From Nemertoderma westbladi (lineage: Eukaryota; Animalia; Xenacoelomorpha), in assembly GCA_032718475.1 (NCBI GenBank), contig JAUCBJ010008837.1, forward strand, positions 1-64,000: DNA of 64,000 nt. Reading direction: 5' to 3'. The notes beneath the pieces were generated by a model. That model was given only the letters and a program-made list of their open reading frames with translations, was not told the DNA's origin and searched no databases. The translations under genes were made by a program, and so were the position numbers. Below, in pieces: positions 10,401-38,702 of this stretch (positions are counted from its first letter, which is position 1; each line of letters opens with the position of its first letter).

Positions 10401-12352
10401 ATCCCAAAAGCCTGGATGGTCATCCAGTACTCCACCGGTTTCTGGTTGAGGTCTCCTTCAGGCCAGCACAGAAATCGTAGGCTGTCTCGATCTCTATCCA
10501 GCGCCTTAACTTGTAAGAACATGCCTTCTATATCAGAGGCGAAAGCGATTGATTATTGTCGTAATCTTAAGAGTATTCCCAACAAGGATTGTAGTAAGTT
10601 GGGTCCTGGCAACAACTCGGAGTTAAGGGATTGGCCCATGTAGAGGGCGGAGCCGTCAAATACTACCCGGACTTCGTTGGGTTTACCGGGTTTGGGAACG
10701 TAATGGTGTGTTAAATAGTACGTTCTCTCAGTTATGGGTGTTCCTTCCGGTACTCGCTCCACATATCCCTTGTCAATGAATTTCTTCAGCTGGGTCTTGT
10801 ACATCTCCTTAGCTGAAGCATTTGCCGTAAGGCGTCGATGTAGCTGCGCAATTCTCTTCTCCGCCAAGGGTAGGTTGTTTATAAAATTGAGTTCTCGCCG
10901 TCGGAAGGGCAGACCAATCTCATATCTACCTTGATCTTTAAGAAAACGTGTAGTCGTTTCTTGTATCTGCTTGGCTCTTTCTTCTTCTACCGATAGGGCC
11001 TTATCGTAGGAATTGGGCTCTACAGCCTCTTGAGTAAAGAATCGTACGGCGTGTTCATCACGAGTCTTCGCGTTGTAGCGATCTATCACTTCATTCAGTT
11101 CGTCGTTGTAGTCGACTTGTCCTGCTGGATGAATGAGGTGACATAGGTTCACTTGGTTTTGCCAAGTTTTGTTTTCTGTAAGGAGGTCGATGGTATTCTC
11201 CTCATCGAAGAGTTGGTGGATATCGTCATTATCTGACGAGTATGGTATTCCCTCAGTTGTGTCGTCTACCTCACTGATCTCCTCTTCCCATTCACTTACC
11301 TGGTAGACCCGTTCTTTGGGTAACCTTTCCATGAGAGTTCTACGGGAAGGGCCAGTAAAGTACCAACCTACTCTAGTTCTTCCCGCATAGGTTTGTAGTG
11401 GTTGCGGTTGAGCAGGCCGTTTCTCCAATGTCTCAAGCGCCTCATGCGCATTTTGGCCGATGAGTATTTGCACTCCAGGGTAGTCTGTGTTGAATCTAGG
11501 TATCTTATGCTGCTGGGTGAAGTCGTCCTCATCCCAGTTATAAGGTTCCACTTGGCTGGTAGCGAAGTTCTTTATCGCCACCATTTTTACTGACCTTATA
11601 CTGTGTTCTCCTAGTTCATCCTGGGGGGTGGACAACGCGCCTACATAGTAATCTGTAGTTACTGTAGATTTCCAAACCTGCATAATTCCTGACATGTTCA
11701 ACTTAGTTCGGAACTTGGGTTGTCCAGCAAAGATGTCTTCGGCTAGTTCTTTGTCGATGAATGTTCCTGTGCTGCTGGAGTCAAGGAGGGCGTTCACTAT
11801 ATAGCTCTTTTTTGGCCCGTGGACTCTCAACTGCACTACGGGAAATTCTCGGATTCCTACGTTGGAAGTTGGTGCTTTCCAAGATGGTTGTCGGTCAGGA
11901 GTAGTTAGGGGGAGCTCACTGTCGGTTTCTTTCTCATACGTAAGTGCTCGATACACTGCGGTATTTATTAGGTAACAAGATTCGTTTTTGTCGGAGAATT
12001 CATCCGTATAGAATCCTTCCATCTCAGAACTTTGGTCAGTGTCGTTCACATCACTGAATTGGACATGTAGTTCGGACTCACTTACCTGACTCGGGCGGTT
12101 TCTTTCGAATTCAGTGTGCAACAAGATATGATGTTTCGCGCCGAACTTTGCACACCTTGTGTCGGAATAACAGGTTCGCCGTTGGTGTCCTTGTCTGAGG
12201 CAATTATAACACAACCGCTTATCCCACATGACTTCACGTCTATCTTTTAGTGATTTCTTTAAAAATTTATCACATACACTTAAATGGTGGGGCCCGTCGC
12301 ACAGCGCACATTTTGGTTTGATGTTACTCACCTTACCTTGGGTAACGTTGTG
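7427..12352 (-). pseudogene. BEL/Pao polyprotein, 3' part: zinc knuckles, aspartic protease, RT, RNase H, integrase, DUF5641-like tail; stops and frameshifts
   Basis: CALCDGPHHLSVC / CYNCLRQGHQRRTC / CAKFGAKHHILLH knuckles; ALLDSSS protease; YMDD; LHMFGDAS; TGVDLFGP, SDKGTNF and PWWGGSWERL integrase motifs. Confidence 0.93.
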
Positions 12353-13357
12353 AGTAGTAGGGTCTTGGTCCTCTCTGTGACACTTGGACCTCACTGACAC
12401 CCATTGGGTGTCATATGACACCCAATTATCACCCATAGGGTGTCATTGGCGCCAGACTGTCTGGGTGACACCTCCCAATTAGGCTAATTAGATCCTAATT
12501 GACAGGTGTCATCAATTAATTAGTACAATTAAACCCTAATAGGTGTCTTACGACTCCTAATTAGGGTTTAATTGATTATCCTAATTAATCAGACTGATTA
12601 GCGCCCTGACACACAATGGGTCATCAGTGTTGTCCAAGTGTCACAGAGCCGGAGCAAGAGGGTGTCATAAGTGACACCGCAGCTCTTTTATTTATTAATA
12701 CTTATTTATTTGTACTTTATTTTAAATTAATTAATTGTATTTATTTTTACTTTATTTATTTGTACTTAATTTTAGATTTACCAATAATTAGTTTTATATA
12801 TTGGTTTCTAAATGACCTCATTGACTTTCATCTCGTTATCCTTAGCCATAGGGTATACAGCTCCCTTACTGGTAACTAATTACTCTTATCTATTTCCAGA
12901 CAGCTTTTTCGTTGACCTTTGACCCCCAATTAGCTTTAACCAAGCAACAACCAATTAATAATAGTTGTATCCAAGCGCCCCGCCCTCTATTGTGACACCT
13001 CTGATTACTAATTACTCTTACCTATATCCAGCCGTCTGCAGTTCCATAGTCTGCCGCTAGAGGGCGTATTATTTGAAAATTATCATCTTCTCTAGCTTTG
13101 TTATTTACAATCCGCAAAACTATGAAGTTATATTGCTTAAGAGTTCTAAGGGGCGAGCCATGAGGCAAGATGTTTGAGGCTTATTTATTTATATTTAATT
13201 TTAATTAATTATTTGTATTCTATTTTACTTTATTTATTCATTTGTACTTTATTTTAAATTAAATATTTGTATTACTTTTACTTTATACATTGATTTCTAT
13301 TTTTAGATTAATTAGTTTTTATATTACCAATGAGATCACTATGACATAATGTCTATA
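12353..13357 (+). repeat. Left terminal inverted repeat (~1 kb) of the reduced element
   Basis: Reverse complement of ~26171-27204; the inner boundary is approximate. Confidence 0.9.
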
Positions 13358-13859
13358 ATTAACTTTATAATGGCTATGGTATACGGCTCCCTACTGGCAA
13401 CTATCAACTACGTTCATCGGCGGGGGGCCCCTCCTCTATCCGCATTATTCATTAACTAGATACAACAGGCAGTGAATCTACACGTATACCCCCAAGGCAA
13501 ATATAAATGAGCAGTCCCGTCTGTTAGCAGCCCCTTCGATGACTCACTAATAATCCCATCGCGGCCTTGACTACACCAAATCCGTATATCGCTCAAGGCT
13601 AATGCTCTAGCGGCCCTCCTTTGTTCTCATTATAGCATCACTCGGGTCCTTTCCTATATCCAGGCAGCCGATATCATAACAATGAAGCGCCTCTAAACAT
13701 GCATTCCTCTCTACTAATCCCTTTCCTTTGCACCAGACCTGCTTCTGTTATACAGTCAACTCAACATAATTAGTCAAGTTGCCTACAGGAGTTTTCTAAT
13801 ATAGATTCATCAACACGAGAAGTTGCCCTGGTAACCGCTTATGCATGAACACACAATTA

Positions 13860-15400
13860 GCGAACCATCCGATTGGTGCTGCGCTCTGATTGGCTCATTT
13901 AAGAGACAAGGGCCTCCCTTAATAACCGAATTGCTATTTAATACATCCCCACCAATATATTAGGTCATTATTTCAATTGCAAGTTACGATTAACATCATT
14001 TACCATTATTTTGTTTTCGAATTTAATATTATTTATTAAGAATATTTATTTGTTATCATCAGTCAACAACCCACTTGTATTATTGTCATTTCGCCGCGTT
14101 ATCGTTCATCGTCGACAACAAACTTTCCGCGTATCCGACTTACAACCGCGTAATATTCCAATATTTCTAATATCCGATACCATTCCGTTCTATCGGTAAA
14201 TAAACTCTCTCGTCGTCCACGTCAACCAACTTCCTCATCGCCACCGAACTTCCAAACTTCATCTTTCCGTGAATATTAACTGACACCGTAAGTAAAATCT
14301 GCCTTCCATCTAGCTATACTTTCGACGCCGCTAGCAAACAATTTACCTTTAATGTCTACCGGTACAACAGTATTGCAGTAGGCTCATTATTAATTACTGT
14401 CAGACTGCGGTGGTACCGATAGCATAAACCGTGATCGGGCATTCAATCAATAGGTCTACATCTGTCTATCTGCTTATAGTATTTTTTCTTTTTACAAATA
14501 ATCATCTTATTTTTCTAGTATCATTTCGCCGCGTTATCGCTTATTGTCGACAACAAACTTTCCGCGTATCCGACGCGTAATATTCCAATATTTCTAATTT
14601 CCGATACCATTCCGTTCTATCGACTAATAAACTCTCTCGTCGTCCACGGCAACCAACTTCCTCACGAACTTCCAAACTTCATCTTTCCGTGAATATTAAC
14701 TGCCACCGTAAGTAAAATCTGCCTTCCACCATCTGACGATACTATCGATGCCGGTAGCAAACAATTTACCTTTAATGTCTACCGGTACAACAGTATTGCA
14801 GTAGGCTCATTATTAATTACTGTCAGACTGCGGTGGTACCGATAGCCTAAACCGTGATCGAAGCATTCGATCAATAGGCCTACATCTGCCTATCTGCTTG
14901 TCTACCTGACTACCGATACCGATCTGCCGATAGCCTAGGGCCATTGTAGTAGCGCTATAGACCCTACTGAACAACAATGAATACTGTAGTTTTCACTATA
15001 TATCCTACTGACTAACTGAGATCTCACACAGCGATTAGCTAGGCCTATCGTTGATTTGTATTGGTTAGCGCTGACTTCTGGCGGACTATATCAAGCACTA
15101 CTGCACTAACTAACTGACTGTTGTTTATAGACCCTCTTTCCACGAATAATAACTGCCATCGCTATTGTGTCTTGGTTATCGCCACTATCTAACCGCTGGT
15201 ACACTAACACTTCCACACTAGACACTACCGACTGTCTGCATTATGTTTCACTGACTGATTGCTACAATACAGCAATAGGCCTAACTATATGAACACAGTA
15301 TTGTTGCCTAGTAACCGATTAATACCTACTGTTTTACTTTATTTTTAGCAAGTATACAGTATTTTTTATCTTTTTACAAATAATCAATGTATTTTTCTAG
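13860..15400 (+). promoter_or_regulatory. Putative Pol II promoter and spliced non-coding leader of pPolB, including a ~435-bp tandem duplication
   Basis: Two ATTGG (CCAAT) boxes at ~13870-13895. GTAAGT donors at 14288 and 14708. TTTTCTAG acceptors end at 14518 and 15400, the latter 7 nt before the ATG at 15408. Duplicated units start at 14086 and 14521. Confidence 0.5.
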
Positions 15401-15407
15401 ATTCAAG

Positions 15408-18400
15408 ATGCCAAGATCAACAAATAAAGTCAGCTGCCCCCATCTGCGACAAAGAGACGCGGAGTGATAATTTATCTCGTCATATTAAAACTCATTTCGT
15501 GCAATATAGATGCGACTGCTGCTCGACTTGGTCCTCGGAAAAGAAGACACTGGTTGGCCATCTGGTATCGTGTCCTCAGGGGGGAACAGGATTTACTTAC
15601 GTAAATGAGCCATCCGATTGCCGCTGCGGGGATTCGCTCACCCTATCATCCTTCACTGAGCATGAATGCTACACTCGACTTTTTTCGCGGAAACGCAAAA
15701 CTCCGGCTACCTCCCACTCATCCCCCATCAACTCTACTCCAGAACAAGTCGGCGGCTGCGGCTCCAATAATGAACCTTCAACTTCGCGAGATTCTATTTC
15801 CCCAAACAATCCCTTTCAACCCCCCTCTATTGGAAGTGCACACGGACGACTGTTTACTTATAACAATGACCTCGCAGAAACAAGACTCGACGCTGAACTA
15901 ACTTTAAATGAAAATTTTCCACATATTCAAGAACACGTTAGTAGCCATTTACATAGTGCTTTGGGAACTTTTTTAAGAGTCTGGCTTACAATCAATATCG
16001 TAATGGAGCGTGAAACTAGCGAGGGTTTCCAAATTGAATCCTTCTGTTTTAAATCTAGCGGTAACAATAATCAAATTCTAAATAATAGCGACTTTAATAA
16101 CTGGTTTTCTAGCGCCGTCAATCGTATCGATCAACTGTTAAGCGTGTTTCTCTGTCTCGGCTCGGGTTGGCGCATAATAGCCATCGAGCGAATAACTATT
16201 GAGATTGCGCGTTCCCAACGCAACCCCTATTTAAAGGGTCAAGGCTTCAATAATTCTAAATTATTATTAAATAAAAAATGTACCGTAAGCGTAGACTGCC
16301 CGCTGGGGGAATGCTTTAAATATGCAGTATTAGCCGCCGCAAATTATAATAAAATTGATAGAAAACAAAATAATATCATAAGAATTTCAACGTATACTCG
16401 TTTCCTAAACATGTTTGATTTTTCCAATTTAAGTTTTCCGGTGGACAGAGTAACTGGTATTCCCCAGTTTCTGAAAGCCAACCCTATATACTGTATAAAT
16501 CTTCTTTATTGGAGTAATACGGAAGAACTCTCCATTCTAAGTCAACCAGATAGCGCGCACTGTTCCGGTAAAACTGTACTAAATTTATTATTTATCGAAG
16601 CCACAAGCAAAAACCCCGCCCACTATGTAGCTATTACTGACATAGATAGACTAATAAATTCAAAAGATTCTAACGGTAACAAGACGCACTGCGAACGCTG
16701 TCTCAGAGGCTTTTACACTGACAAATCATTGGAAGAACATCGAGAGCGGTGCTATATGGGTAAACGCCAACTCGAGTATATGCCCGAAAATCTCTTGGTT
16801 AGGTACGATAAGACTCTATCCCCACCTTTCTGTATATACGCCGACATTGAAACTATTCTAGAACCTACAAACAATATTAAACTCCCACAGAAACATATAG
16901 CTAGCGCGGCAGCCTTTTATACAGTACCAAATCAGAAATTAATTAACCCTCCTAAAACAGATGTTCAAATTTTCCGCGACGATGGCAGTAACCACGTAAT
17001 GCGCGACTTTCTAACCGCTATGGAAAGTCATTGTAGGGAGTTATACGATTGGTCCATTTCTAGTACAAACACGCACGCCCCCATGCAACTCACTACTAGC
17101 CAACAAACTGACTTTAATAACGCTACACAATGCTACGTCTGCAACCGTAATTTAACCCCCGATTCTCATAATTTAAACCTCAATGACAATCTCAGCACCA
17201 AAGTCCGCGATCACGATCATTATAGCGGGGAGTATCGAGGGGCTTCTTGCGTCAGCTGCAACAGGAAACTTTCCCTAAAACGGAATAATTTTTATATTAT
17301 ATTTCATAACTTGAGGAAATTCGATATGCATTTACTACTAAAAGAAGGAATGACCGATAGTTCTAGAACACACTGGAAAATGACTGTAATGCCAAAAAAC
17401 ACTGAAACTTATATTCACCTTAAAGTTAGCTTTCCAATCGATCCGAGTACACCAACAGCCAACGCTAAAGAAAGTATCTCCATTAATTTTCTAGATTCCT
17501 ATCAATTTATGACTGCCAGCCTAGATAATCTTAGTAGTTATCTCACTAAAAATAACAGTAACCTTGCAACGGCCATACCCCCCCCATACACTAGCTCAAA
17601 TGACCCAACTCTATCCCAACATTAGCGATAACACAATAAAAAACAAGGGCGTATTCCCATATTCCTACATTCAAAATATTTCAAACCTACACGAAACTAC
17701 ACTCCCCCCAATAGAAAGCTTCTATAATGATCTCAAATTGGAACAATGTAGCGCAGACAACTATCAGCGCGCGCTTACTACTTGGGATGAATTAAACTGC
17801 GCAACAATCTTCGACTATATGATTGGCTATTTGGTTCTAGACGTTACCCTATTGGCTGATACTTTCGAGCAGTTCCGATCCCTCTTTCTTACTAATTATG
17901 GACTCGAGCCCGTAATGTACTTCACTGCCCCGGGATTAACTTACGACGCGGCGCTGAAATTCACGCAATCAGAAATTCAATTACTATCAGACGCTTCCAT
18001 CTACTCGGACTTTGAAACAAATATTAGGGGTGGTCTAGTTTTCTTGAATACACATTCTGTAGACGCAAATATTCCCGATAAACCCAACTACGACTCCAGT
18101 CTCCCCGAGAAATATCTAATTCCCATCGATGCGAATAACCTTTACGGCTGCGCCCTGAGCCAGAAACTTCCCTACACTAATATTAAACTCGTAACTACCC
18201 CCATAGACCTAGCTACAGTAGACGCGAGTGGGGACACTGGTTATTATTGCATAGTTGATCTACATTACCCGAAAGAAATTCACGATTTGACCGCCAATCT
18301 GCCTCTAGGAGCGGAGAAGATGTCAGTCCCTAAATCCTTTCTTAGCGAATACATGGAAGATCTTTGGGAGCATTACAATCTCACCGATACGGCTACCTGT

Positions 18401-19456
18401 AGACCATACAACGATACCTGTACTAAGCTACTACTACATCAGTTTAATAAGGTTGAATACGGTATCCATATTAAGCTACTTCAACTCTATTTGAAGCTCG
18501 GTCTTAAACTTACACAAGTACATAGGGTCTACTCTTTCTCACAAAAATATATTTTCAAGGACTACATTAGTTTTAATACGAATAAAAGACAGTCGGCAAA
18601 TAACCCATTCGAGGTCCTATTTTATAAGTTGATGAACAATGCCCTGTATGGGAAATGCCTCCAAAAGGTTAGAGACCGCGTTTCTTTCAGGTTATGCAAT
18701 AGCGACGAACAATGCGATTTGCTCTTAGCCAAGCCCAACCACGAATCGTTTGTTGTCTTTACCCCCAACTTGAGTGGACATACTTTCACTAAAGAGGCTG
18801 TTTGCCTAAATCAGGGCGTGTTCATCGGTTGCACTATACTAGATCTATCTAAGCTACAGATGTACGACCTATTTTACTACAAACTGAAGCCTCTAGAACA
18901 AAAACTGGATTGCCAGATTCGCTGTCTAGCCGGTGACACGGATTCTCTAATGCTAAGCGTAACTAATGCACCACAGCTAACCTTTCTACGGGCAATGTTT
19001 GAGGGTGGTTTCCTAGATACTTCCAACTACAGTACAACACATCCACTCTATACCATTAAACACAAAGCGGCTCTCGGCTTCATAAAAGATGAGAGCTGCG
19101 GTTTGCAGTATAAACATTGGGTTTTCCTTAAACCAAAGGTCTATAGTTTTCAATCCTACGATGCCCCAATCAAGAAAACCGCCAAAGGTGTATCTAGATC
19201 GGTTGTCGATAAGCAACTAACACACGAGGATTATGCAGACTGTTTTGAAAACGAAGCAATGCTCTTCCGCTATAACTCTACCTTCACTTCTAGAAAGCAT
19301 CAAATTTTTACTGGTCATGTCTATAAGAAGGCACTAACGCTCTGGGATACGAAATCATATTGGAGTAGTAAATATAGCAGCAAACCATACGGGCACTATA
19401 GCACTAAGCTTGTTAGACCGGCGAAACGAGTAGTAATCCCCCCTACTAGGATTTAA
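15408..19456 (+). CDS. Protein-primed family B DNA polymerase (pPolB) with N-terminal C2H2 finger and endonuclease VII-like insert; two frameshifts in C runs
   Basis: MPRSTNKVSCP-ICDKETRSDNLSRHIKTH; GSGW; YADIE; DHDHYSGEYRGASCVSCN; HNLRKFD; FLDSYQF; KGVFPY; DANNLYG; KLMNNALYGK; GDTDS; PKVY; AKGV. Frameshifts near 15440 and 17580. Confidence 0.92.
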
Positions 19457-19470
19457 TTTAATTTTTCTAG

Positions 19471-19986
19471 AATAAGAAATTGAGCAACAAAATAGAAATA
19501 ACCAATAAACAGTTTACCGGAAAAAACATTGCCAAATTTGAACTAGAGAAAATTTCATAGCAAATTACAGGTCAAAGTTGCTTAAAACCAAACATGTTTA
19601 TCTACAAAGGTGACGATTCAACTATAATGCTATTTCCCAGCGGCGCAGTAACAATTGTAGGCCTGTGCAATAATTTAGCTAGTGAATTGCTTTATTTAAA
19701 ACAAACTATCGGTATGCAATTACAAAATTTGAAACTTAATACCGAAACGCGAACTATTATTTTTCCAAGTGTTAATTTTAAATTATTAATGAAAAAATGT
19801 GGACATCATACAATTAATAATAAAGCAATATTTATTAGCTATACCCCCGAATTATTTTGCGCGATTAGAATATATATAGGACGTGCATATTTCAGTGTAT
19901 TTCATAGTAATAAAATCGTTTCCATGTGTCCTGCCGGTGAATTCCCCGGATCATTATCTATTTTACAAACTTTATTATTAAATTAG
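19471..19986 (+). pseudogene. TBP-like (TATA-binding protein fold) gene with an in-frame TAG at 19558
   Basis: IMLFPSGAVTIVG and SYTPELF...FSVFHSNKIV resemble the two TBP repeats. KPNMFIYK matches KPNQFIYK of the homologue at 43279-43790. It follows a TTTTCTAG acceptor at 19470. Confidence 0.65.
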
Positions 19987-22190
19987 TTTATTTACTATGG
20001 TATACATGAAAGTTTACTATATTATTTATTTTGTGTTGGTTTTTATTTTTCCATGAGTAGGGTTTGAATCCGTGATCATCCGTGTTACCTACTTTTTATA
20101 ATTGCATTAGTAGGACTCGAACCCTGGTTTAACTTATTTTGTGTTGGTTTTATATTGGTCGCGAGTAGGGATTGAACCCGTGACCTTCTGTTTATTTTCC
20201 ATAAAACGGGATATGAATAGGGATCGAACCTGTGAGCATATGTTTTTCCTATTTTACCTCTTCTTCTCCATCTTTCTCACTCAAATTTTCCCCATTTTCT
20301 AGGGGTAACTGTTTTTGTATCCCTTTCAAAATATTCATAACTTTATGAAATTTATTTTCCATTGTCTGTTTTATATTTAATATATCACGCTCATCTCTCT
20401 TTTTCTTTTCATATTCACTAAAAATATCTTCGGATTTTTTAAATTTTTTGGTAACGGAGCCAATAGTTTTTCCTTTCTATGTGTTTCCATCTGACGAGAT
20501 AAATTGTCTTGTCTCATTTCTTTATTACAAACCAAAAAACTTTCATGTCTATGCATTATATAGCAATGTCAATTGATAATATTGAATTTTCACATTATAT
20601 TTATGTTAAATTATAAATTTATGCTACAATTATTATTTTTATTATAAAAAACAGAAATATTCGAGTTATATTGCATTATATAATTTGCATTGAAGTGGAA
20701 TACTTTAGATGTTGGGGGAATCTGGTTTGCGAGGGATATTTGAATGGTGAGTATAACTATCCTTGAGAGCTAGTGCAACGCTATCTCACTATGGATGGGC
20801 TTTACCACTGTACTCGCATCTGCTCTCTCATTGGCTGTTCGATGCCTCCGATTAAGGGTCTAAGGCCTTCAAGCTGGTCATTTGCTTAGTTCTCTAATTG
20901 GAGGGATGTGAGTTTGGACCCTAGAAGTGCATTATTCTTTTTCCTAGCTCTTGGTTAACTCTAGCATACACTCTAGCTTTGACTCTCCCGGCTATAGTGA
21001 TAGTATGCAACCTTGGGAGTTAATGTGAGTACATATTTCAGTGTATTTCATAGCAATAAAATCGTTTCCATGTGTCCTGCCGGTGAATTCCCCGGATCAT
21101 TATCTATTTTACAAACTTTATTATTAAATTAGTTTATTTACTATGGTATACATGAAAGTTTACTATATTATTTATTTTGTGTTGGTTTTTATTTTTCCGT
21201 GAGTAGGGTTTGAATCCGTGACCATCCCTGTTACCTACTTTTTATAATTGCATTAGTAGGATTCGAATCTTGGTTTAACTTATTTTGTGTTGGATTTATA
21301 ATGGTCGCGAGTAGGGATTGAACCCGTGACCTTCTGTTTATTTTCCATAAAACGGATATGAATAGGGATTGAGCCCGTGACCATATGTTTTTCCTATTTT
21401 GTGTTTAGTTTAGTTATTCTAGTTATTCTATGTTTACTTTTTATATTTTCATGACTAGGATTCGAACCCTGGTTTAACTTATTTTGTGTTAAATTATAAA
21501 TTTATGCTACAATTATTATTTATATTATAAAAAACATGTTTATTTTCCATAAAACGGGATACGAGTAGGGATTGAGCCCGTGACCTTCTGTTTTTCCTAT
21601 TTTGTGTTTAGTTTAGGTACTCTAGTTATTCTATGTTTAACTTATTTTGTGTTGGTTTTATATTGGTCGCGAGTAGGGATTGAACCCGTGATCATCTGTT
21701 TATCCTATTTCGTGTTTAGTTTAGTTACTCTATGTTAAAGTGAATTTTCACATTATATTTATGTTAAATTATAAATTTATGCTACAATTATTATTTTTAT
21801 TATAAAAAACAGAAATATTCGAGTTATATTGCATTATATATTTTGCATTGAAGTGGAATACTTTAGATGTTGGGGGAATCTGGTTTGCGAGGGATATTTG
21901 AATGGTGAGTATAACTATCCTTGAGAGCTAGTGCAACGCTATCTCACTATGGATGGGCTTTACCACTGTACTCGCATCTGCTCTCTCATTGGCTGTTCGA
22001 TGTCTCCGATTAAGGGTCTAAGGCCTTCAAGCTGACCATTTGCTTAGTTTTCTAATTAGAAGGTCGTGAGTTTGCACCCTAGAAGAGCATTATTCTTTTT
22101 CCTAGCTCTTGGTTAACTCTAGCATACATTCTAGCTTTGACTCTCCCAGCTATAGTGAGAGTATGCAACCTTGGGAGTTAATGTGAGTAA
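19886..22190. repeat. ~1.15-kb tandem duplication containing an array of ~11 B-box-like motifs on the minus strand
   Basis: 19886-21030 is repeated with rearrangement from 21031. The motif reads GGTTCRAnYCC on the minus strand. Confidence 0.8.
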
Positions 22191-24104
22191 AGGCCAAGAG
22201 ATTAGACTTCTGGTTGCCTCTATTGGTTCATTCTTCTTAACTTTATAAAATAACTCAACCCGTATCTAAAGTTTTAAAAATTATGACTTAGTCGACTAAT
22301 TTTCCAAAGTATATTATAAAAACATATAATTTCTTGAATAAATAGACCTAATAGTAATAAATAATGTGGGGGTAAATACATTTATAATTCTAATATAATT
22401 ATTAAGGATAAATAGTCCTAATACTAATATAATTATGTAATAGTAAGCAAAATTTTTATGCGCAACCATCACAGATTATTTGGATATAAAAGATCACACA
22501 GCCGGAGGCTAACTTGCTGGGATCGACAAAGGCTTTGTGTGCGGTGTGCCGCTATGTCTTATATCGGGTGGATGAGAGAGCCCCCCTAAGCGTAACATTG
22601 CGAACATGGGCTATATTGCTAGAGAGAGAACTACATATAAGACCACATGGAGGTTCATGGAGTGGATGGGCTACGTGAATGGAGGAGCCTAGACCATTGA
22701 ATAATTAATTTAGTGCAGGAAGATGTCACGCCATTAGTCTGACACCGAGAGGGCACAGAGAAACACCAGAAGATGCCTTAACATCACTAACTATGGGCCT
22801 ACTAGACACTATTAACCGCACACTATAAAGGTAAACAAAATCCTTATCGCATTTTCAGCTATAATGAGCGACAGTTCGCGGCAAACTATAGAGAGTTTCC
22901 AGATTACTAAACGTTTCAAATTAACTGTCTCCTTGAATGGCTTACTAGCAATCATACTACTAAAAAATTCATTAGAGAGTGGGATTGAACTCGTTGTATA
23001 GTAAAAAAGTAAAACGAGTGAAATACTATATGTATAATTACAGGACGGCTGGGTGCAACCTTCGTTCACCTACAACCTCCCCCCAGGTGCAATCTTTGTT
23101 CGCGAAAATTTTCAGGAATTTTGAATTTTGCAGTCGCATGGAGTGATAACCCTTAGGTGAAAGCTAAATTTGCTCTACTTTAATCAAATGGGGCATTAAA
23201 GCTACGAGTATATTTTCCTTTACATACTCCCTCGATCTTACACAAATCTGGGTAAAAGGCGGTTGAAGGGCTATCATTCGCAACATATGCGGTCCCCCCT
23301 TTAATGTTTCATTGTTCAATTCATAGTCGCCTTTAAGAATTTCTCAGGAAAATAAGGACGATCACTTTCAACCCATGCGGCCCTCCCTTTCATGATTTCA
23401 TTGAACTATCCATAGTATGAACAATCAAACCAAAGCCTTTGAATATAGGACTAAATATCCTCGCGGCTTATCAGCGGCGCCATGGCTAACGGCTTAATAT
23501 CAATAGTGAAGCATCTAAAAGAATAGAAGAGTAATAGAAGAATAATAGGGCAGAACAGCGTACTTACAGCTTAGAGGTGGGCGCGCTGAAAACTTTGCTC
23601 GCCATCAATACATACAAAGCATCGCTTGATGGAAAGAGTAATAGCGTGGATATTTTCATTTTGGTGAATATAATTTATAGCATTAATCACGAAAATCGCT
23701 AAATAATATATTTTAACTAAAGTCAACTCTGATAAACAACTTGCATAACGAGTTTGTAAAGAATTCATAGGGATTGGCTGTTTATTTAGGGATTAACATT
23801 CAAAATGATTATGAACGAGCAATAGGGTCATTAGTGGTATGCTGAGACTCACTTATTTCATGGCTCGCTCTCATAGTATAGATTAACTAATAGAGAAAAT
23901 GAAAAATAAGTGGTTAAACATCCTATATTTTTAAACATTATGGGGAAACAAGAATAAATAATTTACCGACAACATCAATATTAAATAATATAACAACAAC
24001 GGATAAATAATTTACCAACAACATTAATAATAAATAATATAAGAACATCAACAATAACAAAAGATATAGTCAGAACAGTTTTTAATAAATAGAGACTGTT
24101 TATA

Positions 24105-25817
24105 TTAATAGGGTTGCTGGTCTCCGAGAATAAGGTTTGGTTTAACCCTTTTAGGGTCCGATACTATTAATGGCTGCGATAATTTTCTCTTTAATAGTTT
24201 GTTGAGATAACCTTTTCTTGGGGGGTGAAATAGATTAAGGTGTGTTTGCTGCGGGAGAAAGATGCCTTCTCTGAGAGAACGTTTTAGTAATTCGAAAAGG
24301 CGCGCGATGGTAAAGTTGTTGGATAGGGTGATAGTGTTGGTATTTTTCGTATTGGTGAATATAATTTCTGCTGGTTTGTTCTCGATATGGATGTAAGGAC
24401 TGAGGTAGTAGTGAGAGTTGGGTGGGTTGGTTGTATTTATCGTGAGAAAAGCGCTGCCCCTAATATTGAGACCGTTGGTGAACTAAAAAGTGGTATTCTC
24501 TTCGTCTTTCATTAAAATGGGCCAGATACCGACATATTTTTCGGATTTGAACTTATAGATAAAGGCTGCGATACTGCTATTTATGAGATAGCGTTGGTGA
24601 TTGGGAATCGTAATCTGCTTTGGTTTGAAAGCAAATTGTATAGCCATAGCCTTGAATCTGATTAGAGCCTCGCGCGCTTGAATCGTGTTAGCTATAGTAA
24701 AGGATTCGTTAAATTTTCTCTCGGTTATCTGTAAATCAATTTCTGAATCACTGATACAACTTTGTATCGATATTCGCTCGGAAATGTTGTCTTTGTAGAT
24801 GTTAAGTTCATCGTAGCAGACACATTCACTATCCTCGATAGTTGAATCGAACCATTTCAAATCGCCTACCTCGGTTGGTGTAAGAAGAATCATGCCCCTA
24901 GAAGAAACAATAGCCTTTCCATTGTCAACCTCGTAGCCATTGGTGATCGCTAAATTGCGCTCGTTCCAAATATTTGTAACAAACCCAAAAGTGCAATAGT
25001 CAAAAGCAACCCAATTACCCGGTTTTAGGACAAGGTGAGTAGTAGGATTAATAAAAGGGCGACATATGTTTACATATTGTTGAAATAAATTGGCGCAGGC
25101 AACGGAAAATGTGATCCATGAACTGTTTACAGTGTCTTCCAGCTTTATTAACTCGAGTGGATTCACTGGGTTAATACTTCCATAGGTGCCAACTCTATAA
25201 TTGAATCCAAAGTAATAGGAGACTTTATTGGCGAAAAAGCATGTGAGCTCATTCAATTTCTCGCCGAAAGCGAGAACATCCTTGTCGAAAAGTTTAAAGA
25301 AACGAGTCTCCTCTTCCTCGGTCGGAGTCGACGAGTTCCAGATGAGAAGAAGAATCGAGTTTGCGATACTATGAAAATCGAATAAGCGATCATCGGAGAA
25401 GAAGGAGGTTACGAGAGTGGTTAAACCCAGTAAACGATTTGCCACATCTTGGTTGATGTTTTCTCGAATAAAATCGACTATACTAGTTGGAATCGTAAAC
25501 GTCTCGGGCGAAGTAGTTAGATTGAACGTTATTTTGTTGGCCCTTTTTAAAAGTTTGAAACCGTGGTTGGAGGAATGAAGTTTATTATCGTCGAGGGTTT
25601 GATATTGTCCATCGTGAAGTTCGTAGCAGGCCCGGAAAATAAAGTGCGCGTAGTTTGCCGGAATCGGGATGGGTTGGTTTAAGGTTGTATTTATCGTTAA
25701 CGGGAAGAGTTTGTTCGCCGAATCGAAATATAGACCAAACGAGTTGTCTTGTAGCATAAACTGATTTTCGTTGCAAACCAGATCGTTGCTTGAATAGCTG
25801 ATTTCTGAATGTGCCAT
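24105..25817 (-). pseudogene. Multi-domain PC4-like (putative ssDNA-binding) protein, copy 1, premature TAG at 24483
   Basis: Nearly identical to the intact 563-aa ORF at 59147-60838, with a CAG>TAG change. The segment IYKFKSEKYVGIW...GLNI is PC4-like. Confidence 0.6.
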
Positions 25818-26170
25818 CGTGATTGTGTACCGGTAACTCGTTTAGGAAATAAAAATAAATAAATACTTTTACGAAAATAATTAAAACTTTTCAGGAAAAC
25901 AAAGAGACAATGATTGGGAATGTGGTGAACGGGGGCTATTATAGAGGGGGCTAGAATGGGTTAGCCAATCAGGGAACAGTAGGGAGAAAAGATTGTATAA
26001 TTAAACCAATCAGAGAGCAGCTTTGATGACGTCACATCAGGCGAGATAATGATTGCCCAATGTTATTCAATGGTAGCCAGAGTGGCGCCATTGAATAACG
26101 AAGGCAAAGGGGCCGCGAGAGGAAAGATTATAAAGTTAACGATAAGGGATCTATAAACCATAGAGCTAAA

Positions 26171-27204
26171 TATAGACATTATGTCATAATTACGTCATTG
26201 GTAATATAAAAACTAATTAATCTAAAAATAGAAATCAATGTATAAAGTAAAAGTAATACAATTAATTAATTTAAAATAAAGTACAAATGAATAAATAATT
26301 TAGAATTAAATACGAATAAAATAAAATGCAAATAATTAATTAAAATTAAATATAAATAAATAAGCCTCAAACATCTTGCCTCATGGCTCGCCCCTTAGAA
26401 CTCTTAAGCAATATAACTTCATAGTTTTGCGGATTGTAAATAACAAAGCTAGAGAAGATGATAATTTTCAAATAATACGCCCTCTAGTGGCAGACTATGG
26501 AACTGCAGACGACTGGATATAGGTAAGAGTAATTAGTAATCAGAGGTGTCACAATAGAGGGCGGGGCGCTTGGATACAACTATTATTAATTGGTTGTTGC
26601 TTGGTTAAAGCTAATTGGGGGTCAAAGGTCAACGAAAAAGCTGTCTGGAAATAGAGTAATAGAGTAATTAGTTACCAGTAAGGGAGCTGTATACCCTATG
26701 GCTAAGGATAACGAGATGAAAGTCAATGAGGTCATTTAGAAACCAATATATAAAACTAATTATTGGTAAATCTAAAATTAAGTACAAATAAATAAAGTAA
26801 AAATAAATACAATTAATTAATTTAAAATAAAGTACAAATAAATAAGTATTAATAAATAAAAGAGCTGCGGTGTCACTTATGACACCCTCTTGATCCGGCT
26901 CTGTGACACTTGGACAACACTGATGACCCATTGTGTGTCAGGGCGCTAATCAGTCTGATTAATTAGGATAATCAATTAAACCCTAATTAGGAGTCGTAAG
27001 ACACCTATTAGGGTTTAATTGTACTAATTAATTGATGACACCTGTCAATTAGGATCTAATTAGCCTAATTGGGAGGTGTCATCCAGACAGTCTGGCGCCA
27101 ATGACACCCAATGACACCCTATGGGTGATAATTGGGTGTCATATGACACCCAATGGGTGTCAGTGAGGTCCAAGTGTCACAGAGAGGACCAAGACCCTAC
27201 TACT
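26171..27204 (-). repeat. Right terminal inverted repeat of the reduced element
   Basis: Reverse complement of 12353-13357; ends CCCTACTACT. Confidence 0.9.
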
Positions 27205-30195
27205 GTTGTGCACTCTCGTTCTTTCCTCGGGCTTTCTTCCGTGAACTCTATTAGGAGACGTAGGAGGAGTTTTTGTTACCTGTTCTCTCCTGTCATTGGT
27301 TCGAGACTTAAATTTACTTACATCTTTAGGCGCTTTGTTGACATAGTAAGATCTTTCAGTGTCTTTCCTGCTGTCCTCTTCTTGAGAAGCCTGGCTTTCG
27401 CCGTCGTCTGTATAACACACTGGTGTTACCTTTCTCCTAGAAACGGGTTTCTCACTTACCTTATTTTCCGGTGTCTTCTCTCTGGACTGCTTTAGGAGCT
27501 GTAATTTTACCTCTCCATCTAAGAATGACATGAGATCAGCCATGGTAGGGTCTCTTCGTTGTTGTTCCATCATATATAACACTTTCTTGTCCCAGCGTGT
27601 ACCTACTCCACCCTTTGGTAAAGTAGATGCTACGGCTCCAATAACCAGAGAACTCTGATATTCATGAGACTTACCTAGCCAATCTAATTGTCTACAGATC
27701 TCCTGAATCTCATCGAAAAACTCTATAATCCCACTGCTAATGAACTTTCGGGGCGCTACCAATTTTGCATACAAATACCTAGCTATGTTATTCCTATTAC
27801 CATACCTGATGTTTAAGGTATTCCAAACTTGGCTTAATCCATCTGGATGTCCAATAAACTTTAACGCCATTAACTTGGGAGATCCTTCTAAGCACTCGAT
27901 GAGGAATCTAAGTTTCTCTCCGTTAGATAGCGCAGAGTTCTGTATGTTATCTTTGTAATATTAATTAAAAGGTAACCATTTCATCTCATCTCCATTGAAC
28001 TTGACGATCTCTCCCACCTTTACCGCTTGACAGGCTTCGGTTCTAGCCATTTGACGTGTAAAACTTTCTTGGGCCATCGTATTATTTAATATCGAGTTAT
28101 CGGTATATAAATTTCTCGGATTGTTATCAAGTCTATATGGAATATCATTATCAACAGGTTTACAATTACCCTTAATAAGGTTTACTATAGGAGTATCTAT
28201 TTCACTAGCAGTATAGATGCGTGTAGGCTCCACACCTTGCGCATGAAATACTTCAGACCGAACAGGTTGACACATTGTTACAGGGGGTGGTGGTATACCT
28301 CTTTGTATATTTACCAATTTATCGTGTTCTAACGCGATACTCTGCTGCACTTCTTGCAACTCTAACCTACCCTCTCTGACTGTGCCCTTTAACTACTGAA
28401 CAGTCCCTTCCATCTCCCGGACCTGCTGAGAGGAGCACAAACGGTGTTCCCTCAGCTGCCCGAGCAGGAGACCCATCTCCCGCCGTCCCTCATCCACCCA
28501 CTCTACCGCTGAAGCGGGAGCCGCCAACATAGTAGCGGGTAGACGAGGGACAACGGGCGACAAATCGTTGATATTTCGCTCGGAGTCCAGGACAGGAACT
28601 GTCTCAGGGGCAGTTCTGCTGGGCACAGGTAGTTTAGTGCTGTGCAAAGGGAATTTAGAGGTAGGTTCTGGGAGTACAGGTGTCTCTATCACCGAAGGGG
28701 TGGCTTCGAGAACAGGCCTAATTATTTCAGGCTCATCTACTATAGTAGGGAGTCTTTCTACTCTAATAATTTGGTCTGTGGGTTCTGTACTACCTAAGTC
28801 TGTGCTAGCTAGTTGCCTTCTCACAGCTGGGGGCAAATCAGGCAATTTCTGACGGTGAGGCATTCTTCTACGTCTGTTGGAACGAGATCTATTTCTTCCG
28901 CCTTCAGGATCGGTGGTATCGCCTTCATCCGATGATGTAAAGCCCTGTCGCTTGGGGGTGGATCGACTTATCATCTGCCACTGAGTAGCTGTTCTCTGTT
29001 TATCTATGTAGTCTTGCTTCTCTTGCAGATTTTCCAACTCTAGTTGGGTGGTCTCTTCAGATGCTCTCCGTTCTGCTTCTGCCACTGCTATCTTTCTTTC
29101 TGCTTCTGCCGCTTTTCTTTCCGCTTCTGCCGCTGCCACTGCCGCTTTTATTTCCACTTCTGCCGCTTTTCTTTCCGCTTCTGCCGCTGCTGCTGCCTCT
29201 GCCGCCTTTCTTTCCACTTCTGCCGCTGCCTCTGCCGCTTTTCTTTCCACTTCTGCCGCTGCCTCTGCCGCTTTTCTTTCCACTTCTGCCGCTTTTCTTT
29301 CCGCTTCTGCCGCTGCCACTGCCGCTGCTGCTGTCTTTCTGCGTTCTATACGTTTTTTCTTTACTTGTTCTTCTTGGACCCTAGCGATGCGGCTGCTTTC
29401 ATCAAATTTAGCTTGGTTCGCAGCTAACATTTCCGCATCTATTGCGTCCAGCACAAACTTGGCTCCTTCACTATTAGGGCGAAGTCCAGCCAGCCTTCTC
29501 CTCAACTCTTCGTCACCTAGAAATCGTTGATAGTCTGACAGATAGATGTCAATAGCTTCCTTCTTCTGCGGTTTCTCTGCTGTCGATTCGCTTTCCACTT
29601 GAGAAAAGGTAGCGTCTGCTGATTCTCCATGGGTTGAGCGCTCAGCCAGCTGAAATTTCCACTGGGCCGTTCCTTGAACCTTGAGACTCACCCGCTGGAA
29701 CCAAGTCTTTACGGCAACTTGCAATGACGTGTCTTGTCTTCTTTTTGAAGCTTCCTCAAAGGCCGATAGGATTAGTCTGATTCTTAGAATTCTTTCTCGA
29801 ACTTGATAAAGCAGTTCTCCCTGCTCTTGAGGTCCTTGGGGTTGTTGAAACAGTTGTTCCTCTAATCGCTCCAAAGAGCTGAAGAATCCCTGTATATATC
29901 CTGCTGCCGACCTCTTCCACACAGCTGGATCACTAGTGTCTTTTGTCACTCCCATCCTGTGTATGTCTTCCCAGGCAGCTTCCGATAAGTCAAACGGGAG
30001 TCCGGGTCCGGGGAAGTTCCATTGCGACTCGACAATAGACTTCAGTTCCTCCCTTGTGTATCCCGCATAACTGTTCTTGGTCGATCGCTTACTTCTCGCC
30101 CAATCAATTTGGTGTTCCTCCACCGCAATCAATACCCTAGTGAGTACGGCTGCAGGAAGAATGAGAAGGGGATCCGAATAAACCGCATCAGCCAT
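27205..30195 (-). pseudogene. BEL/Pao gag, 5' part (coiled-coil and DUF1759-like region) with in-frame stops
   Basis: ORFs 28393-30195, 27961-28359 and 27160-27870 share one frame. KFNGDEMKWLPF and WNTLNIRYGN are BEL gag-like. The frame resumes on the far side of the insertion. Confidence 0.85.
29070..29335 (-). repeat. Coding minisatellite giving an (AAEAERK/AAEVERK)n coiled coil in gag
   Basis: Repeated TCTGCCGCT units; Ala/Glu/Arg/Lys repeat in the translation. Confidence 0.85.
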
Positions 30196-31547: not shown

Positions 31548-32062
31548 AGTAGTAGGAGAAGCATAGTTCCTCCATATCTCCTCCCTATCTTGGGCTACGG
31601 CTCGCATCTCGGAGGCAATTAAAAAATGCCAAATTCCGGTGCTAAATCGCGGTGTTTAATGACCATCTGTCACCATCAATATTGATTCGCGTCGTTGCCT
31701 TCAACCAATCGTTGCTTATCACCTACGCGTAGCCTAACCTCGCGATGCCTACCTTACTCGACAACTGTTACCACCCGTGAGTATTGATTCGCGTCGTTGC
31801 ATCAACCAACCATCGCATATTCATCTTCGCGTAACCTAACTTCTCATCGCATGGCTAGCCCCCACTACGCTATTATATCGAATCGATTGCCAACTCACCA
31901 CCACCACCACCACCGTCGCTAGCCACGCACGGCTACTCTTCGACGGCTGTCGCCAAACCAATCAATCCAACCAACCAAGCGGCCTGCCTACCCCAACGCT
32001 ATTATGATACGTGTTGAAATTTCGCCACGTTCTAGCTACACGTATACGAATATTTCCATAGT
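31548..32062 (+). repeat. Polinton left TIR
   Basis: Reverse complement of 49753-50267; the internal direct repeat TATTGATTCGCGTCGTTGC occurs twice. Confidence 0.93.
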
Positions 32063-32477
32063 TATTTCCTATCCACGCAACCAACCACGGTCTACTGTAT
32101 ATGCTGACAACGTGGCCACCAACTACACGCATCACGCATATATTATATTATATTGATTGCCAACTCCACGACTGCTGTCGCCAAATCAACAAACCAAGCA
32201 GTATGATACATGAGATTCCGTCACGTTCTAGCTACGCGTATACGATCATTAGTGATTATTACGCAATAATTTTTTTGTTTATACAGTAGTTACCCACCAG
32301 CTAATCAACCAATCAATAAACCGAATTTAGGCTATTTCTCAGTTTAAGACCTGTATTATTTTTGAAAATATCTTATATATATAATCTCTTGCTTTAATCG
32401 CAATTAATCATTTGTAATGGTTTTAGTTTAAAAGTTTTTACTTTGTTTGTTTGATTTACAATAAAATAAATTAAATA

Positions 32478-32924
32478 ATGTCTTCTGATTCCAATATGGT
32501 TATGCCAATGGTAAGGCATTCATTTTTTGCAGAAGATGGTCAAGCCTATATTGTTATTGATTATACAATTTACCATCAGGGAGATGATAAATATAAAATT
32601 GAATTTTCTGAAAAAGCCAGGAAAGTTTTAAGCTCAATTGATATTGATGCTTCTGATAATAGTATTCATCTTTTAGATTACAACCTGAAAGCTGAGCATG
32701 GGGGAGGAAAATTAAGCAACATTTTACTATTTTCCATGATAGAGGGATTTATTGTTATTACACAATACAACGAAGCTGGTGAAAAGTTTGAAATATGGCT
32801 AAATCGGCATAGCCCCTACGAAATTATGTCTTTCTTTATTGTAATGATTTCAAAAGAATCCTTTGTCGAACCTGAAGAATCAGCGGATAATGTTGAATAT
32901 GTTGATAATATCATTGATTCTTGA
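32478..32924 (+). CDS. Polinton hypothetical protein (148 aa)
   Basis: ATG-started ORF with protein-like composition, downstream of CCAAT/TATA-like motifs; no recognised domain. Confidence 0.6.
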   Translation: MSSDSNMVMPMVRHSFFAEDGQAYIVIDYTIYHQGDDKYKIEFSEKARKVLSSIDIDASDNSIHLLDYNLKAEHGGGKLSNILLFSMIEGFIVITQYNEAGEKFEIWLNRHSPYEIMSFFIVMISKESFVEPEESADNVEYVDNIIDS

Positions 32925-33086
32925 CTTTTCCCTCTATATTATAAATATTTTATGATTATATATAAAATTTTGTTGTTTTTAAATAATCGAAAATTGTAGT
33001 AGTATTTGTATATACAGTATAACAGTTTTGTTTGTTGTTGTTGTGTATTGTGGTAATTATTTTCAATTTACTTTAAAATTTGGAAA

Positions 33087-33572
33087 ATGGATATTTTAAA
33101 TGAAAAATGTCCAGTTTGCTATTCTAAGTTATTGCAACAACATCGAGATTATTATAAATGTGAAAATAAACATGCAACTTGCGTACAATGTATTGCACAA
33201 TATTCCGAAATGAATAATTATTGATCTAAAATTTGTCCTATTTGTCGCGCACCCATATCTAAGTTTAATATAAAGTTGGCAAGATACCAACCCTATTATT
33301 GGAAAGAGCTTCGCAATATAACTTATATTTCTGCGAAAAGTAATGATCCGGGAGATTTATTTACAATATTGGAGAATATTTTTTATAGAAACGTAGTACG
33401 ACGCTGTTGCTACTATATTCCTTATTTTTTTAGCAGCGAACATAAAAAAATCATTAGCGCGAAATTTTCGGGAAGTGATTTCCAATCCGCCGATGTTACC
33501 TATCATTATTTCGCGTATAAAGATGCTCACCATGCTAGAAATTACATCGGTCTATACTATAATTGGAAATAG
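33087..33572 (+). pseudogene. RING-HC (C3HC4) finger protein, in-frame TGA at 33222
   Basis: Manual translation: MDILNEKCPVC...KCENKHATCVQC...NY*SKICPICRAP, in frame with ORF 33276-33572. Confidence 0.8.
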
Positions 33573-33755
33573 CACCTTTTGCTGCAGCGAGCGTCACATA
33601 CTGTAGCGGCGCCGTATGTTAATTAAATATACAGTACTCTAATATTGTAGTTGCATCAATTATTGTTATATACATAGTAATGGTGTTGGTTTATTGATAT
33701 TGATATTGATATTATATTATATTGTATTGTTGATATATCTTAATAATAATAATAA

Positions 33756-34436
33756 ATGGCTGACTTTAATTCAGGTCCATATAATTTAAATTTTCAAATG
33801 GGAACGAGTATGATAATTTCAGGGCCATCTGGCTCCGGAAAGTCTACATTTGTTGGCAATTTAATTAAACACAAGAATGGTTGTTTCAACGAAGCCCCCT
33901 TGCGAGTATTGTATTGTTACGGGAGCAATCCCCCGACTATTCCTGGTATTACTCACCTTTACAAAGGCTTGCCTGAAAATATAGATAGTTTAGTGAATAG
34001 TCGAGATTTATTAATTATAGATGATTTGTTAACAGAAACTGAGTCCAGTACAGCTTTAACTGTATTGTTTACTAAGGTAGCTCATCATTCCAATATATTT
34101 ATTTGTTTTATAACGCAAAACATGTTTTACGGTGGGAAGCATAACCGCACAAGATCAATTAATAGCCATACTTTAGTATTAATGAAAAATCCGAGAGATA
34201 GTCTATCGGTTTTAAATTTCGCGAAGCAGATGTTACCAGGGCAGACCAAATTTTTAGTTGATTCCTATCAAGATGCGACAATTGAACCATTTTCACATTT
34301 CTTAATTGATTTACGACAGGAAACACCCGAACATTTAAGATTTAGATCTGATATATTTCGTAATCATAATTGTTACATTAAAAATTACACTGACTATAAA
34401 CGTAGCGAAAATAATAATAATAATAATGATAAATAA
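33756..34436 (+). CDS. Polinton packaging ATPase (A32/FtsK-HerA type)
   Basis: Walker A GPSGSGKS, Walker B LLIIDD, and ITQN / MKNPRD / FLIDL motifs. Confidence 0.93.
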   Translation: MADFNSGPYNLNFQMGTSMIISGPSGSGKSTFVGNLIKHKNGCFNEAPLRVLYCYGSNPPTIPGITHLYKGLPENIDSLVNSRDLLIIDDLLTETESSTALTVLFTKVAHHSNIFICFITQNMFYGGKHNRTRSINSHTLVLMKNPRDSLSVLNFAKQMLPGQTKFLVDSYQDATIEPFSHFLIDLRQETPEHLRFRSDIFRNHNCYIKNYTDYKRSENNNNNNDK

Positions 34437-34473
34437 TTAATATTTTGTAACAATTTTCAATAATGTTGCAACA

Positions 34474-34857
34474 ATGAATAGACTTGTGCAGAAATATCGT
34501 AACGAACTGGAATTTCTACGCAGCGCTACCCCTCAACAAAGAACTTATTTTATTAACCATACCGCCAGTAACGAATTAATACGGCTCATTGTAAATACTG
34601 CATTAAATGTTCTAAAAGGTAATGTACAATTGACCCCACATTCATTTAGAAATATTCGCCGCTATAAGAAGGTATTGAAATCACTCAACCGTAAAACAAA
34701 AAATATATCAAGTTACAGAAAAAAGTTAAGCAATCAATCTGGAGGCATACTACCGTTTCTAATACCCTTACTCGGCATTGGTGTGAAACTTGCCGCGAGT
34801 GCTGGTGCCGCGGCCGCGGGGGCTGCTATTGCGAAAAAAATTAACCGTGGACGGTAG
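34474..34857 (+). CDS. Small basic Polinton structural/core protein with a putative adenain cleavage site
   Basis: LNVLKGNV...QSGGILPFLIPLL, typical of Polinton small virion proteins. Confidence 0.7.
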   Translation: MNRLVQKYRNELEFLRSATPQQRTYFINHTASNELIRLIVNTALNVLKGNVQLTPHSFRNIRRYKKVLKSLNRKTKNISSYRKKLSNQSGGILPFLIPLLGIGVKLAASAGAAAAGAAIAKKINRGR

Positions 34858-35070
34858 GTAATAATGGTTAAAACGGGAGTAACATTTAGAAAATTATATT
34901 TAGTATCGAGTAAACCGTTAGCTGCTGATTTAAAACCACAAGATATACCTAGAGTAAATACTACAAAAAGAAAACCCTTTAAAACATCAACTTCGAAGAA
35001 AATAATTAAAAAATTTCAGTTGTTCTTACGGTGATGCCCTTTATAAGAGATTTGAATATACATATTACTT

Positions 35071-36177: not shown

Positions 36178-36429
36178 GCTTAGGTTTATACTGTATATTA
36201 ATTCATTTTGGTCGCATATGACCGTAATTAATCAATAATATTAACTCGAATGATATTACTATATCTATAGTTCATCCGCTTTAAATAAAGCCAGTAAAAT
36301 ATTGATCCCACGCATATACTGTAGAAGATGCTGGCAATGAACGTGGTCACAGATGTCTATAATTTAACATTATACTGTATGTACAAAGGAGTCAAGTAGA
36401 GAGAGCGAGCTTAAATAATAATAATAATA

Positions 36430-38152: not shown

Positions 38153-38702
38153 TTTATTTCAAAGATACAGTAAACCTCAATATGGGGGTTCAGACTCTAA
38201 TCTTGCTGTTTTTAAAGGCGGAAGAAGTACCAGAGGCTCGACGCAAGTTCCTGTTTTTCGTGGTGGTTCATATATTGACCCTTACGGTCAACAAATTGGC
38301 ACATTTGGTCCAAACTTAAAACAACGTCGTTTTCAGCGTTATCGTAGGGGTATGCGGGCAAATCAACACGGAGAAGGTATATTTACAGACGCTTTATCTA
38401 CATTGAAAAAATTTGGTAAGCCATTAGCTAAAAAAGTTTTACAGAAAGCTTTACCATTTACCACAAAATTTATGAGACAACACGTAATACCAAAAGGTAA
38501 GCGGGTCTTACATCAGCAGGCTAATACGGTTATTAATAAAGCATTAAATAAAATGAAACCGTCAACAAGGTCGGTTGTAGAAAAAGTTTATAGAGATTTA
38601 AAGCGACCCGCTAGACCAATGTCTATGAACATACATCATCGACGTAGTAAAAAGAGAAATATAAAAGGCAAACTGAAACACTGCGAAAAAAGTATTTTTT
38701 AA
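38142..38702 (+). CDS. Basic core protein with QxGG/QxGxG motifs and an amphipathic helix
   Basis: QYGG, FKGG, FRGG and QHGEGIFTDALSTLKKFGKPLAKK; Arg/Lys rich; lies directly before the MCP. Confidence 0.7.
   Translation: MDSDLFQRYSKPQYGGSDSNLAVFKGGRSTRGSTQVPVFRGGSYIDPYGQQIGTFGPNLKQRRFQRYRRGMRANQHGEGIFTDALSTLKKFGKPLAKKVLQKALPFTTKFMRQHVIPKGKRVLHQQANTVINKALNKMKPSTRSVVEKVYRDLKRPARPMSMNIHHRRSKKRNIKGKLKHCEKSIF

Follow-up and report, generated by a model that had tools for sequence, protein, structure and literature searches.

A Polinton-derived element with hairpin-forming ends and no integrase or virion genes in Nemertoderma westbladi

The locus described here raises the question of how a unit that has the ends of a Polinton but none of the genes that move one came to be precisely inserted in a genome. 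The window, a 64,000-nucleotide stretch of Nemertoderma westbladi DNA (contig JAUCBJ010008837.1 of assembly GCA_032718475.1), contains an integrated Polinton-derived unit of 14.85 kb at 12353-27204, both termini of which read AGTAGTAGG. Polintons are defined by pPolB together with an integrase, and a 6-bp target site duplication (TSD) is the mark of an RVE integrase. An earlier note on this DNA had interpreted the unit as a self-replicating lineage that carries replication genes only. That description holds as far as the absence of integrase and virion genes and the Polinton-type 6-bp TSD are concerned, but the pPolB is broken, the centre of the unit is a minority form, and the pPolB groups with that of a neighbouring Polinton (31548-50267). 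The data give a probability of about 0.5 to a different reading, in which 12353-27204 is a defunct member, shortened internally, of a second Polinton family that this genome harbours and whose longer members would carry the missing module, and the satellite reading of the earlier note is currently somewhat less likely than such a deletion derivative.

The absence of the mobility and virion genes was examined using profiles for the integrase (INT, 14 sequences), ATPase (8), major capsid protein (MCP, 8), minor capsid protein (mCP, 26) and protease (PRO, 7), which included the neighbouring Polinton's own proteins, against six-frame translations with X at stops. No remnant of any of the five was found in the element (best independent E-value 0.75 or worse), and none was found when the non-pPolB parts of the element were searched together with the interior of a second copy that starts at 57902 (0.6 or worse). 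An RVE integrase was found neither by tblastn nor by six-frame profiles (best independent E-value 13). The neighbouring Polinton, used as a control, scored 1e-53 to 1e-171 with the identical profiles. A six-frame search for INT and MCP remnants was the check that had been set for the claim of a unit without integrase or virion genes, and the claim passed it. With no RVE integrase, ATPase, protease, MCP or mCP, the unit is not an autonomous Polinton and works like a non-autonomous one.

The ends of the element, on the other hand, are complete, as had been claimed. The terminal inverted repeats (TIRs) are approximately 1.02-1.05 kb long and 95.7% identical by BLAST, with 4 substitutions in the outer 850 nt (0.5%) and 11 differences in the inner 166 nt, and so few differences suggest that the insertion is recent. 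BLAST and reading of the flanks found the hexamer GTTGTG on both sides (P = 3.5e-4 for a chance 6-mer match), and it lies in frame within a BEL/Pao gag open reading frame (ORF) that is open on both sides and split by the element. Contigs were available from four public runs, X1-X4, representing three samples from three studies (X2 and X3 are one sample), one of which may be the source of the window. Loose contig ends at 27204/27205 in X1, X2 and X4 match the left flank as judged by eye, so BEL copies without the insertion exist. Polintons have been described with TIRs of 100-1500 bp and TSDs of 5-8 bp (10.1101/2023.08.22.554363), and the element falls within both ranges. It also has what characterizes a non-autonomous Polinton derivative, namely Polinton ends and a TSD with the mobility genes gone.

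The genes that remain are all damaged. The pPolB matches PF03175 in both halves (E 4e-14 and 2e-5) and retains the DANNLY and DTDS motifs, and the TBP-like gene was recovered with a profile built from 9 Pfam-positive TBPs of related Polinton loci (E 5e-17), so both identifications made earlier are confirmed. TBP genes are common in this clade (9 of the 94 ORFs scanned in related loci and the window). The further statement that pPolB, a TBP-like gene and a PC4-like gene are the only substantial ORFs is correct for the first two, but all three genes (3/3) are broken in this copy and two more small remnants lie in the centre. The pPolB frame breaks near 15.4 kb and again near 17.55 kb, where it is split across two frames. 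Over these stretches the contigs of greatest depth show gaps relative to the window, so the breaks probably belong to this copy, or to its assembly, alone. With its pPolB broken, the copy as sequenced is unable to replicate itself.

The third gene is better described as an orphan. Its protein has a sole relative, a 355-aa ORF of the neighbouring Polinton (27% identity over 104 aa, E 4e-7). For the 563-aa version from the second copy and the 355-aa protein, database searches gave no homologues, Pfam and PDB gave no matches and the Atlas gave no usable match, and Foldseek returned nothing from their low-confidence predicted models (pLDDT 31 and 34). A PC4-like pattern is visible by eye in the stretch common to both proteins, but no tool confirmed it; the "multi-PC4-like" identity proposed earlier is thus a lead without support from Pfam, PDB, homologue searches or folding. 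Over 560 codons, the orphan genes of the two copies differ by 17 synonymous and 15 non-synonymous changes, which is consistent with purifying selection.

The centre of this copy is neither devoid of features nor typical of the family. Contigs cover 30 of 30 bins of the element in X1-X3 and 27 of 30 in X4. It should be noted that contig depth is not copy number and that summed depth is inflated where contigs are short, so all such figures are rough. Depth was judged against a low-copy Gypsy element in the window (X1 100, X2 395, X3 109-140; absent in X4). Depth of the pPolB arm at 19117 was 1975, 6648, 1489 and 56 in X1-X4, and that of the orphan arm 980, 5348 and 2120 in X1-X3, meaning that in X1-X3 both arms have roughly 10-20 times the depth of the reference and are multi-copy. 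Summed depth at 22889 (X1 18616, X2 38396, X3 26324, X4 922) declines 36- to 227-fold at 22974 (X1 462, X2 1077, X3 116, X4 24). Since position 19117 is deeper than 22974 in 4/4 runs, most copies of the pPolB arm likely do not share this centre, and the layout seen at 12353-27204 likely represents a minority within a family that is multi-copy and varies in its interior. At least 11 contigs depart from the window sequence behind 22920 (X2 5, X3 5, X4 1) and at least 3 before 22923 (X4), so other copies hold DNA there that is missing from this one. The arms are multi-copy and the centre is a minority form, and the short contigs cannot phase whole copies for a count of the layout without INT. A truncation is favoured because the break at 22920 cuts the apparent first gene of a transcription unit, of which a 45-codon ORF is likely the truncated start, and because most copies continue differently.

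The element and the neighbouring Polinton have no DNA matches to each other and their ends have 9 nt in common, which upholds the view that the element is not a deletion derivative of this neighbour. Its pPolB is 42% identical to the neighbour's and 40-43% identical to the closest database pPolBs, the named matches being animals. A tree built from 72 sequences, namely both window proteins and the top 70 of 120 matches, places the two window polymerases as sisters (support 0.988) separated by 1.36 substitutions per site, and the same pairing was obtained in a 46-sequence IQ-TREE run that was unfinished and carried no supports. The separate pPolB clade that had been expected was therefore not recovered, though the branch is long. 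INT was present in 9 of 9 related loci of at least 9 kb, the remainder of the 83 loci being too short to judge. In viral contigs the TIR word had no matches, a scan with single proteins gave none either, and an alignment scan found 3 distant loci.

The element's ends have a property that is a new finding of this study. Modelled as single-stranded DNA, the outer ~310 nt of the TIR forms a branched hairpin (-104.8 kcal/mol, z -22) beyond which the 10 terminal nt stay unpaired. The TIR of the second copy folds likewise (z -17.5), whereas in the same test that of the neighbouring Polinton showed no hairpin (z -0.7). Of the 19 substitutions between the hairpins of the two copies, 6 make 3 compensatory pairs; the others affect 5 pairs in which no Watson-Crick pair is kept, and 7 unpaired positions. 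The compensatory changes may reflect either arm-to-arm homogenization or selection, which two variants do not separate.

Taken as a truncated copy, the element would have arisen as follows. Members of the family would replicate as linear DNA, protein-primed from the TIR ends, as pPolB elements are described to do (PMC11161782). An RVE integrase acting on the AGTAGTAGG ends would have created the TSD, and DNA would have been lost from this copy at about 22920, where the promoter-led gene breaks off. The internal duplications are 3-10% diverged and the outer TIRs 0.5%, which suggests that the duplications are older than the insertion and that the rearranged form was probably already mobile. If so, the integrase probably came in trans, either from members of the family that are intact or from the neighbouring family, which is far more abundant. 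The neighbour's integrase-virion module is one contiguous block of ~7 kb, so a single deletion would remove it. The truncation is supported by the drop in depth between 22889 and 22974, the departing contigs, the different interior genes of the second copy, the broken state of all genes, the sister relationship of the pPolB to that of a complete Polinton and the presence of INT in every long related locus. TIR-plus-pPolB remnants without INT have also been described at 10 loci in C. elegans (PMC11414722).

Several observations weigh against a truncation. The family is deeply diverged from the neighbour, has a hairpin TIR of its own and keeps genes of the replication type at either end. Nowhere was the hairpin TIR seen linked to an integrase or capsid gene, not even in the additional 2.2 kb of interior that the second copy has, and the centre of the element retains no trace of the integrase-virion module. 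Depth at the terminal hairpin and over the central cassette exceeds that of the pPolB arm several-fold, as would fit the existence of partners that have no pPolB, and purifying selection on the orphan gene suggests that the lineage was recently functional in some form. There is just short of an even chance for the broader proposition that the hairpin-ended family never has integrase or capsid genes on the polymerase molecule. The family would then be either a self-replicating satellite that borrows a helper's integrase or the polymerase-bearing half of a Polinton in two segments, both of which would have the conserved ~310-nt hairpin as a signal for replication and integration.

The first form of this proposition is unlikely. 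It holds that the whole family is a replicon without integrase or capsid that has pPolB, the TBP-like gene, the orphan gene and a few accessory genes that vary, and that takes its integrase from the neighbouring family through the common AGTAGTAGG ends. The lack of INT and MCP remnants, the similar depth of the two multi-copy arms and the selection on the orphan gene all fit, as does the presence of a helper family whose INT ORF is intact and whose pPolB contigs are the deeper ones in X1-X3. Polintons have also been described as giving rise to cytoplasmic linear plasmids by losing the morphogenetic module (PMC11161782). However, the centre of this copy is a minority form and other copies hold further DNA at 22920, just 9 terminal nt are shared with the supposed helper, and INT was never missing from the long related loci.

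The second form, slightly less likely again, is a bipartite Polinton in which the element would be the polymerase segment and a partner with the same hairpin ends would have integrase and capsid genes and no pPolB. Such an arrangement would account for the depth of the outer TIR at 27054 (summed, X1 54205, X2 407570, X3 201287, X4 567), where the terminal hairpin has 10-135 times the depth of the pPolB arm, and for the depth of the central cassette; the excess suggests that this pPolB may be missing from many of the elements that have such ends. The segments of bidnaviruses likewise have common termini (PMC8502044). However, no partner segment was seen, the excess could consist of gene-less miniature elements or diverged sister families, and depth summed over 47-68 short contigs overstates abundance, with ratios that differ between X2 and X3 despite their being one sample. 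An assembly artefact at the centre, either a collapse or a chimera of two copies, is very improbable: although none of the contigs listed bridges 22920-22923 and several frame breaks here and in the neighbour fall at single-base runs, the TSD matches at both ends, the junction is not flanked by a repeat pair, the stretch to its right is covered in 4/4 runs and the in-frame stops are not run-length errors.

Comparison with known systems places the element near several of them. It resembles the Polintons/Mavericks (Polintoviricetes; Alpha-class adintoviruses with OTU and PF03175 PolB, PMC8502044) in its PF03175-class pPolB, long TIRs, AGTAGT ends, 6-bp TSD, size within the 13-25 kb range and TBP-like gene, but differs in having broken genes, none of the integrase-virion module and a large TIR hairpin that the neighbour lacks. 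The C. elegans loci also retain TIR and pPolB without integrase, but by their description are partial remnants (PMC11414722), whereas in our element neither the TIRs nor the TSD are damaged and each arm is multi-copy. Nine Polintons have been listed as lacking MCP, PRO and ATPase together (PMC4028283), which parallels the joint absence of the virion module here, though the passage on them reports no loss of the integrase, which is absent from our element as well. Bidnaviridae share a polinton-type pPolB, and matching segment termini would be a parallel to a bipartite element, but they are single-stranded DNA viruses with a parvovirus-like capsid and no integrase (PMC8502044), and the element has no such capsid genes. 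Fungal cytoplasmic linear plasmids of the pGKL type are likewise polinton-derived pPolB replicons without a morphogenetic module (PMC11161782). The element, known here from assembled sequence alone, differs in being chromosomally integrated with a TSD and in lacking RNA polymerase and capping genes. Such genes are carried by pGKL-type plasmids, and Repbase contains non-autonomous Polintons with TIR and pPolB but no integrase. In the literature searched, which took in few subscription papers and no supplements, no family complete in TIR and TSD that keeps pPolB without an integrase was described, nor was a bipartite Polinton.

If the element is a deletion derivative it is ordinary, the hairpin TIR aside. 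Should the family prove to lack an integrase or to be segmented, it would stand as a living intermediate on the way from Polintons to linear plasmids or to segmented pPolB viruses; that transition has so far been deduced from phylogeny (PMC11161782). Such a family would also mean that Polinton integrases act in trans on ends with ~9 nt in common, and surveys that demand five Polinton proteins (10.1101/2023.08.22.554363) would miss such elements. The features of the locus are collected in Table 1.

Table 1. Positions of the element, its second copy and the neighbouring Polinton in the 64,000-nucleotide window.
Feature	Position	Strand	Basis or remark
Left TSD copy (GTTGTG)	12347..12352	+	BLAST/sequence reading
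Left TIR, begins AGTAGTAGG	12353..13368	+	BLAST
Branched fold-back hairpin, outer TIR	12363-12660 (+), 26897-27194, 57912-58218		Folding z-scores
Non-coding direct duplication, 5' of pPolB, 90% alike	14086..14899	+	BLAST
pPolB: zinc-finger-like start, HNH/EndoVII-like insert, exonuclease and polymerase motifs; frame broken	15349..19456	+	PF03175
TBP-like gene with in-frame stop in 5' part	19486..19986	+	Profile search
Tandem duplication, ~1.15-kb unit, copies 96-97% alike, second copy rearranged	19883..22189	+	BLAST
Degenerate repeat array, 11 minus-strand B-box/T-arm-like words	20026..21710	-	Related repeats 62058-62611
Small frameshifted gene remnant: zinc-finger-like start, K/E-rich tail	20249..20568	-	Sequence comparison
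45-codon ORF after TATA-like word and short intron-like stretch (by eye)	22864..23001	+	Other copies diverge at 22920-22923
Right arm common to second copy (57902-61831)	23116..26159	-	BLAST
Orphan gene ("PC4-like")	24105..25817	-	444 aa to premature stop; 563 aa in second copy
Right TIR	26160..27204	-	BLAST
Right TSD copy (GTTGTG)	27205..27210	+	BLAST/sequence reading
Neighbouring full Polinton	31548..50267	.	515-nt TIRs, TSD CCTATT, intact 363-aa RVE integrase ORF, ATPase, MCP, two mCP, protease
Second family member (cut by window end)	57902..64000	+	TIR, 563-aa ORF, related repeats, 141-aa ORF, further open frame
Second member, 563-aa ORF	59147-60838		Orphan gene counterpart
Second member, 141-aa ORF, T/S-rich start, acidic end	63133-63558		No family match
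Second member, further open frame	63688-64000		Absent in 12353-27204 copy; no family match

The second family member does start where it had been placed, at 57902, but it shares with 12353-27204 the right arm alone, up to 23116/61831, and then has a different interior, the depth of which is a few times that of the low-copy Gypsy reference. That Gypsy element (52873-57901), which has a PHD-like C-terminal stretch and is nearly absent in X4, is interrupted by the second member, and contigs of X1 and X2 pass 57902 into other DNA, so the site also occurs empty.

Within the centre of the element, the B-box/tRNA T-arm-like array sits directly after the TBP-like gene, and the second member has a related one. 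Searches of the array found no tRNA and no Rfam match; speculatively, it might bind Pol III factors or serve as an insulator. The zinc-finger-like start of the small remnant matches the start of pPolB at 11 of 18 residues (E 0.008). Two metagenome Polintons, L016 and L019, have a C2H2 gene directly 5' of INT; identification of the remnant with that gene was rejected, there being no match.

The neighbouring Polinton is a candidate helper. In this assembly its pPolB is split as well and its TBP-like gene is frameshifted (45700-45810, 43285-43700), although its integrase and virion ORFs are open. Its two tandem minor-capsid-like ORFs (36430-38152) are 27% identical to each other, and a RING-finger-like frame was seen by eye at 33087-33570, 5' of the ATPase. 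A high-copy, LTR-like direct repeat of ~1.2 kb is present at 2864-4043 and 51145-52316, the copies being 98-99% alike and 48 kb apart, and one of them adjoins this Polinton. Among the metagenome Polintons, a phospholipase A2-like gene lies beside TBP in L016 (13727-15139), L019 (3994-5207), L009 (7276-8519) and L027 (5246-6477).

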